Part shown: positions 24,540 through 24,829 of the stretch, piece after piece
Layout: each line of letters starts with the position of its first letter
Numbering within the stretch: the stretch's first letter is position 1
Assembly: GCF_003334355.1 (NCBI RefSeq)
Contig: NZ_QOWP01000034.1
Length of the DNA: 37,733 nt
From: Escherichia coli
Lineage (GTDB): Bacteria; Pseudomonadota; Gammaproteobacteria; Enterobacterales; Enterobacteriaceae
Direction: 5' to 3' (one strand)
The notes under the pieces: generated by a model
Told to the model about the DNA's origin: nothing
The model's database searches: none
Seen by the model: only the letters and a program-made list of their open reading frames with translations
Program-made: the position numbers and the translations under genes

Positions 24540-24829
24540 ATGAAATTAAAATAGTTGCGGTGGTTGTAACTGGTTTGTTAGCTGCGAACGTAGCACACGC
24601 TGCCGAAGTCTATAACAAGGATGGTAATAAACTCGACCTTTATGGCAAGGTTACCGCTCTACGTTATTTTACTGATGATAAGCGTGACGATGGTGATAAA
24701 ACTTATGCCCGTCTCGGCTTTAAAGGAGAAACGCAAATCAATGATCAAATGATTGGTTTTGGTCACTGGGAATATGATTTTAAAGGCTATAACGATGAAG
24801 CCAACGGCTCGCGCGGCAACAATCTCTGA
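24540..24829 (+). pseudogene. yddL: Porin (OmpC/NmpC family) N-terminal fragment, disrupted in the signal peptide and truncated
   Basis: ATG AAA TTA AAA TAG at 24540-24554 gives MKLK-stop. In the -1 frame from 24560 the sequence continues as the remainder of a porin signal peptide and the mature N-terminus [17 protein letters not shown]...[15 protein letters not shown], then stops after about 89 codons. No beta-barrel body follows. Confidence 0.8.

Follow-up and report, generated by a model that had tools for sequence, protein, structure and literature searches.

The interval between yddG and narU of Escherichia coli contains a short porin-like open reading frame (ORF) beside an ORF for an LRR protein, and it raises the question of what gene this fragment descends from, how that gene came to be cut short, and whether what is left of it still serves any purpose. 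We investigated these issues in a 37,733-nucleotide stretch of E. coli DNA (assembly GCF_003334355.1, contig NZ_QOWP01000034.1), hereafter the window, in which the fragment lies at 24540-24829 and is surrounded by fdnG, yddG, the LRR ORF, narU and narZ. It is almost certainly yddL, a nonfunctional remnant, from the N-terminal end, of a general porin gene of the OmpD type that once lay directly downstream of yddG. As such the feature is already known (the annotated pseudogene yddL, b1472) and represents ordinary gene decay. The parts of the locus on which the argument rests are the following:

24282..24539, + strand: yddG-yddL intergenic region, the former porin promoter and 5' leader, which aligns with the O157:H7 and E. 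albertii upstream regions.
24540..24554, + strand: native porin start and premature stop, ATG AAA TTA AAA TAG, by direct reading.
24548..24551, + strand: A4 homopolymer, the site of a 1-bp deletion (A5 in K-12 and O157:H7).
24551..24601, + strand: signal-peptide remainder in the -1 frame, with predicted cleavage AHA/AEVY.
24602..24822, + strand: authentic mature N-terminus of the porin, about 71 residues ending ...EANGSRG, matched by Porin_1 and identical to the O157:H7 porin.
24814..24822, + strand: deletion junction 1, joining porin codon ~93 to the LRR side, from the O157:H7 alignment.
24827..24829, + strand: TGA stop of the truncated frame, contributed by LRR-side sequence, from direct reading and the O157:H7 alignment.
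24853..26184, + strand: LRR ORF of 443 residues, intact in the window, the lineage-specific low-GC partner within the islet.
25128-25139, + strand: deletion junction 2, an exact 12-bp repeat, CATTGATTTATC, with 653 bp lost relative to O157:H7.

Translation from the native ATG of the A4 allele would halt after Met-Lys-Leu-Lys. A -1 frame relative to this ATG, running from 24542 to the TGA at 24827-24829, carries the remainder of a porin signal peptide and the mature N-terminus, and appears in the ORF listing of the window as an 89-residue ORF from GTG 24560 to 24829. The predicted cleavage fits the solved porin structures, in which the chains begin at the residue numbered 22 (AEVY) in the intact orthologue, and the mature stretch amounts to roughly the first 3-4 β-strands. 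Affinity to the Porin_1 group (OmpC/OmpF/PhoE/OmpD) is clear from profile matches that cover the N-terminal 65-89 positions only: Pfam Porin_1 (PF00267) matches with E=1.8e-23 at model positions 1-65 of 337, and the NCBIfam 'porin OmpC' subfamily NF007841 with E=1.2e-36 over the first 89 of its 368 profile positions; the score of 126.6 falls far under the 484-bit cut-off for a complete protein. Furthermore, the first 92 codons are identical, but for one residue, to the intact 366-residue porin of O157:H7.

The remaining hallmarks of the family are missing: 1) There is no translatable ORF with an intact Sec signal peptide, as codon 5 is TAG and the remainder lies in another frame. 2) The full 16-strand barrel of about 340 mature residues is absent, along with the L3 constriction loop motif PEFGG, which the intact orthologue has at residue 131 and the window has lost. 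3) The C-terminal aromatic residue is wanting, the window frame ending in ...GSRGNNL, whereas intact orthologues all end in YQF, the BAM recognition signal. No β-barrel body follows 3' of the fragment, where the LRR ORF begins 23 nt after the stop, at 24853. An earlier note, drawn from the letters of this DNA, had anticipated much of this, namely the ATG AAA TTA AAA TAG opening, the -1 frame with its signal-peptide remainder and mature N-terminus, the stop after about 89 codons with no barrel, and the adjacent LRR ORF. All of these are borne out, and its reading of an ompC/nmpC-like porin remnant stands on formal alignment with both Pfam and NCBIfam and on the near-identity to the O157:H7 gene.

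The assignment to yddL follows from comparison with annotated genomes. E. coli PSS-12 (NZ_AP027697) is 100% identical to the window and a K-12 derivative 99.2% identical over 8.3 kb, and RefSeq labels the gene in both as 'yddL: porin; incomplete; missing C-terminus'. A junction probe and the K-12 comparison both recover the same join between porin codon ~93 and LRR-side sequence. Okeke et al. 2011 had reported that yddL resembles the 5' end of Z2239 of O157:H7, in O-island 62 between yddG and narU, and EcoGene, as cited in PMC9976479, lists yddL as a pseudogene. The same 2023 survey (PMC9976479) records that its annotations conflict, with 'lipoprotein' and 'outer membrane beta-barrel protein' in use beside the EcoGene pseudogene. 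What is newly added here are the base-level deletion endpoints, the evidence for a single event, the frequencies of the locus states, the correction of the history of the locus to one of two deletions, and the synteny that ties yddL/Z2239 to Salmonella ompD.

Two matters of annotation were encountered on the way. On the minus strand fdnG appears as two ORFs, 22581..23168 and 20121..22532, with an in-frame TGA at 22581-22583 after ...DNQARV, which we take to be the selenocysteine codon of formate dehydrogenase-N. RefSeq annotates a single fdnG CDS of 3,048 bp. The O157:H7 porin (L003 3341-4441) carries the PGAP label 'ompC' because it scores 495.8 against the 484-bit cut-off of NF007841. Strains with an intact yddG-adjacent porin presumably carry two genes labelled ompC, an annotation quirk.

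The loss of the porin body can be traced at base level. At the same position O157:H7 has the intact porin followed by three LRR-type ORFs, and the window aligns with this locus in three collinear blocks separated by two junctions. At junction 1 the LRR-side sequence starts 39 nt upstream of the LRR ORF, 1,545 bp are lost, in agreement with the published size of O-island 62 (1,548 bp), and the join lies within an imperfect microhomology, CG(G/A)CAA(C/G)A(A/G), of 8-10 nt. A single illegitimate-recombination deletion here took away porin codons ~94-366 and, with them, the LRR gene next in line, so that the frame now runs through three or four junction codons into TGA. The deletion at junction 2 merges two tandem LRR genes into the 443-residue ORF of the window. 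All bases of the window's LRR ORF are present in the O157:H7 locus, and hence the form shared by K-12 and the window is a two-deletion derivative; on the same ground the published model of a 'yddK insertion' (Okeke et al. 2011) was rejected. The check proposed in the earlier note has thus been answered, strains with the intact gene being found (O157:H7) and the deletion endpoints fixed at base level. Its view of the islet as the eroded remainder of a larger insertion holds in so far as an ancestral porin and three LRR ORFs were eroded by two deletions.

As for the LRR partner itself, its O157:H7 counterpart is labelled 'T3SS effector EspR1' by PGAP and is frameshifted there, and the only NCBIfam match of the window's LRR ORF is a weak LRR similarity to SlrP (E=1.5e-8).

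To place these events in the species, we used a reference set of 5,426 complete E. coli genomes, 5,411 of which are matched by megablast with positions 24200-26500. The 5' end of the porin is present in 4,268 and, by subtraction, absent from about 1,160; the porin body is present in 1,119 (with coverage of at least 80% in 1,102); and the exact junction 1, counted with a 66-nt probe spanning it and covered at ≥80%, occurs in 3,136, with yddL annotated in all of the matches listed. The locus is thus truncated in 58%, intact in 21% and absent in 21% of genomes. The truncated and body-bearing genomes add up to 4,255 (3,136 + 1,119), which accounts for all junction-probe matches, so that one ancestral deletion explains all truncated alleles. 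In the one empty-locus genome that was examined yddG runs straight to narU, without window positions 24366-26322. Its left breakpoint is at 24365/24366, and its right breakpoint, 26322/26323, coincides with the point where homology to E. albertii resumes. From these coordinates the empty state may go back to an ancestor that predates the LRR block; alternatively, this may be a hotspot of recombination.

The ancestry of the porin was sought by scanning one genome per species with an intact porin, which gave 80 loci, and by searching the FdnG, YddG, NarU and LRR proteins of the window against these with tblastn. Among relatives of at least 68% identity whose contigs reach upstream, nearly all have the order fdnG(-)-yddG(+)-porin(+), the sole exception being a locus of Klebsiella spallanzanii. 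This order is seen in E. albertii (92% identity), Lelliottia, Citrobacter, Enterobacter, Intestinirhabdus and Salmonella enterica subsp. arizonae, often with narU about 3 kb downstream, and the orthologous ORFs are uninterrupted, 357-366 residues long and end in YQF. Paralogues of 66% identity or less are sited elsewhere, except for two yddG-adjacent Enterobacter loci of 61% identity (L048, L050). The porin in the window thus has the position that marks the OmpD group, next after yddG on the same strand, with fdnG divergent on the far side of yddG. In Salmonella the syntenic gene shows 88% identity to 'porin OmpD', and smvA and the TetR regulator smvR come after it, which matches the published yddG-ompD-smvA neighbourhood. 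Among relatives with an experimentally based name, 'porin OmpD' is likewise the closest to the intact E. coli allele (72-73% identity, 578 bits, as against about 424 bits for OmpC/OmpK36 structures), and the two share their signal peptide. Two contigs from metagenome-assembled genomes, L006 (labelled Collinsella sp.) and L030 (labelled Lachnospiraceae), also carry OmpD-type porin genes, of 86% and 69% identity, with an LRR ORF downstream of the porin in L006; both are probably binning contaminants from Escherichia or other Enterobacteriaceae.

On the synteny, the porin is an ancestral gene of the core locus and yddL the remnant of a positional ompD orthologue, the LRR block alone being an insertion. 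The contrary reading, that of Okeke et al. 2011, makes the porin fragment part of a horizontally acquired O-island 62 between yddG and narU that was later eroded, with yddK inserted. It can draw on the low GC content of the islet (30-37% vs about 50% in the flanks) and on the absence of the locus from about 21% of E. coli. However, in at least six other genera the porin is found beside yddG with the same placement and orientation, the LRR block is missing from the porin-bearing locus of E. albertii, where homology to the window returns exactly at 26323, and the GC content of the porin (44%) is like that of its orthologues (45-48%) and unlike that of the LRR block (34%); moreover, containment of the whole window LRR ORF in the O157:H7 locus points to two deletions and not to a yddK insertion. 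We therefore consider the acquired-island account very improbable. The insertion proposed in the earlier note overlaps only in part with that account: it is upheld for the LRR block and fails for the porin, which by synteny is ancestral at the site.

The stop within the signal peptide is a separate matter from this common truncation. K-12 and O157:H7 read ATG AAA TTA AAA ATA GTT where the window has A4, and restoring one A yields the 96-codon ORF of the K-12 type, so that the window would have suffered a second, much rarer lesion, the loss of one A from the A5 run at codons 4-5. The A4 allele is matched at ≥99% by at most 4 of the 4,268 genomes having the 5' end, and its full-length matches are two only, PSS-12, which equals the window, and G4/9. 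The latter differs from the window by 76 mismatches in 12 kb and is not closely related to it, and its locus shows six further 1-bp contractions in A/T runs and several PGAP frameshift flags; from this pattern, the A4 of G4/9 is probably an assembly error. Being unrelated and beset by homopolymer contractions, G4/9 was rejected as confirmation of A4 by descent. The stop in the window may accordingly be a rare private lesion or an assembly error atop the common truncation. That it is a homopolymer under-call in the source assembly, the strain really having the standard 96-codon yddL, itself still a truncated pseudogene, is conceivable but on balance doubtful. The rarity of A4 favours such an error, as do the features of G4/9, which are typical of long-read errors. 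In contrast, runs in the window are not generally contracted against K-12, two being shorter and two longer in 8.3 kb, one of the longer runs keeps its LRR ORF intact, the core genes around yddL are intact, and a pseudogene is free to gather 1-bp slips of this kind. With either A4 or A5 the gene is a truncated pseudogene. Homopolymers in the intergenic DNA on either side of the islet also differ from K-12, with A6 vs A7 at 24335 and an extra T at 26304, which points to slippage as the main mode of indel formation in this AT-rich region. Programmed -1 frameshifting at A-AAA-TAG was considered and dismissed, as the run has only four A's and the restored product would still be a truncated porin.

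Could the truncated gene nonetheless have acquired a role? The analysis of 2023 (PMC9976479) speculated that YddL is a 4-strand outer-membrane protein tied to osmotic stress, citing four transmembrane strands predicted by BetAware-Deep and hints from co-occurrence. A functional small exported or outer-membrane protein, consisting of the signal peptide and about 75 residues and acting in envelope permeability or osmotic stress, could further be argued from the 96-codon ORF with its canonical signal peptide, which is intact in >99.9% of genomes carrying yddL, and from the flagging of yddL in TraDIS and boric-acid screens. Yet the ORF of the window is interrupted at codon 5, and even the frame-repaired product of 96 residues would comprise only the signal peptide and about 71 mature residues, with some 12-13 strands of the 16 missing and with neither the L3 constriction loop nor the terminal YQF, the signal for insertion by BAM. 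On established porin and BAM biology, these losses mean that no barrel could form, four strands being unable to close one, and that the product, if made, would be degraded. Its last residues are junction-derived and vary between strains (GNNL in the window, GKNL in K-12), about 21% of E. coli do without the locus and another 21% have the full-length gene instead, and the co-occurrence evidence for osmotic stress is confounded by phylogroup. The intactness of the 96-codon ORF is expected without selection given the shallow divergence of E. coli: in the ~275 bp that remain, no substitution separates K-12 from O157:H7, and K-12, O157:H7 and the window together have one or two differing sites, far too few for dN/dS. 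The screens carry little weight for function. yddL is reported as 'essential only by TraDIS' in K-12, on a list shared with many other AT-rich accessory genes, and the Keio yddL mutant is viable, with a weak 'low sensitivity' boric-acid phenotype. The natural absence of the locus from about 21% of genomes and the viable mutant contradict essentiality. We take the TraDIS call to reflect poor transposon access to H-NS-bound DNA. A functional YddL protein is hence extremely unlikely, and yddL should not be read as a functional small outer-membrane protein or an essential gene.

A role as a regulatory module was also weighed, in which the remnant would be a leader for the downstream LRR gene (promoter capture) or a target or decoy for those sRNAs of the envelope-stress response by which ompD is repressed in Salmonella. 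The former porin upstream region has a GC content of 28% and a Shine-Dalgarno-like AAGGA at 24526-24530, and conserved blocks within it align with the ompD upstream regions of Salmonella, Citrobacter and Enterobacter. A consensus-only scan of it found 11 promoter-like hexamers against 2.8 expected, in DNA that is AT-rich. Directly after the yddG stop a GC-rich hairpin, GCCGGGTCTACGGCCCGGC, occupies 24288-24308. It scans as terminator-like in the minus-strand direction, and probably serves as terminator of yddG and bounds, on the left, the AT-rich stretch upstream of the porin. In favour of a leader, 23 nt separate the end of the truncated ORF from the LRR start, the + strand has no terminator-like site in this gap, and yddLKJ is given as a single operon; there is, however, no obvious Shine-Dalgarno sequence ahead of the LRR ATG. 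Genomic SELEX lists an internal RpoD promoter in yddLKJ, so the yddL region may be transcribed. In favour of a target, the known sRNA sites on Salmonella ompD all fall within codons 1-26, a region retained in yddL, and the RybB seed match survives with two G:U wobbles. We predicted the pairing of MicC, RybB and SdsR from MG1655 with positions -60..+120 of the window, K-12, O157:H7, E. albertii, Citrobacter and Salmonella alleles, the duplex energies serving for comparison between alleles only. In every case the E. coli alleles pair less stably than Salmonella ompD: the 12-bp MicC site at +67..+78 is lost (-11.9 vs -20.8 kcal/mol, at a non-homologous position), and the values are -14 to -15 vs -19.1 for RybB and -26.8 vs -45.0 for SdsR. 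An Rfam scan of 23000-27000 at E≤1 returned a chance miRNA match only and no Rfam element; within the text searched no sRNA paper names yddL, and a literature search on Z2239/ECs2076 expression gave nothing relevant. Taken together, a regulatory remnant appears improbable. The same low standing is given to its most specific form, in which the 1,545-bp deletion would have made a yddL-LRR operon by fusing an OmpD-type porin promoter, its 5' leader and the first 92 codons to the beginning of an LRR gene of the EspR1 family. If this were true, an effector-like LRR protein would have come under porin-type control by envelope stress or sRNA, and promoter capture could explain how the allele reached about 58% of E. 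coli. Our own reading of yddL is that of a decayed porin gene, for which no evidence of residual function was found.

Set against known systems, the fragment is closest to yddL of K-12, which has the same locus, flanking genes and deletion junction. The K-12 allele differs in having A5 and hence an open 96-codon frame ending in ...GSRGKNL, whereas the window has A4 and TAG at codon 5; a junction SNP, C vs G at 24820, makes the repaired window frame end in ...GSRGNNL. The neighbouring LRR ORF, intact in the window, is frameshifted into yddK/yddJ in K-12 by an A5/A4 run at 25801. The parental gene is Z2239 of O157:H7 (O-island 62; PGAP 'ompC: porin OmpC', WP_000768382.1), whose upstream region is essentially identical to that of the window. 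Z2239 is full length at 366 residues, with PEFGG and the C-terminal YQF, while in the window the barrel and the next LRR gene have gone with the missing 1,545 bp.

Beyond E. coli the counterpart is OmpD of Salmonella enterica, which like yddL lies immediately downstream of yddG in the same orientation. OmpD and the yddG-adjacent porin share the signal peptide MKLK[LI]VAV.VT.LLA, and the intact E. coli allele is 72% identical to OmpD. In Salmonella the gene is expressed as a major porin and has smvA/smvR behind it, whereas the E. coli lineage gained the LRR block and the barrel was lost in most of its strains; yddL also conserves poorly the target sites for sRNAs that have been mapped on Salmonella ompD. 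Another porin of the OmpD/NmpC clade, nmpC of the DLP12 prophage in K-12, is silent in that strain, and according to the literature (PMC3333887) it was inactivated by an insertion element and not by deletion. NmpC is 78% identical to OmpD and about 67% to the intact yddG-adjacent porin, but its signal peptide is unrelated and its gene is prophage-borne, at another locus. In work on sRNAs, this prophage gene is taken as the equivalent in E. coli of Salmonella ompD (PMC3333887). The comparison of sequence and position argues well for a modest correction, in that the true E. coli counterpart of ompD is Z2239/yddL and not prophage nmpC, an orthology that is relevant wherever the OmpD-centred sRNA regulons of Salmonella and E. 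coli are compared.
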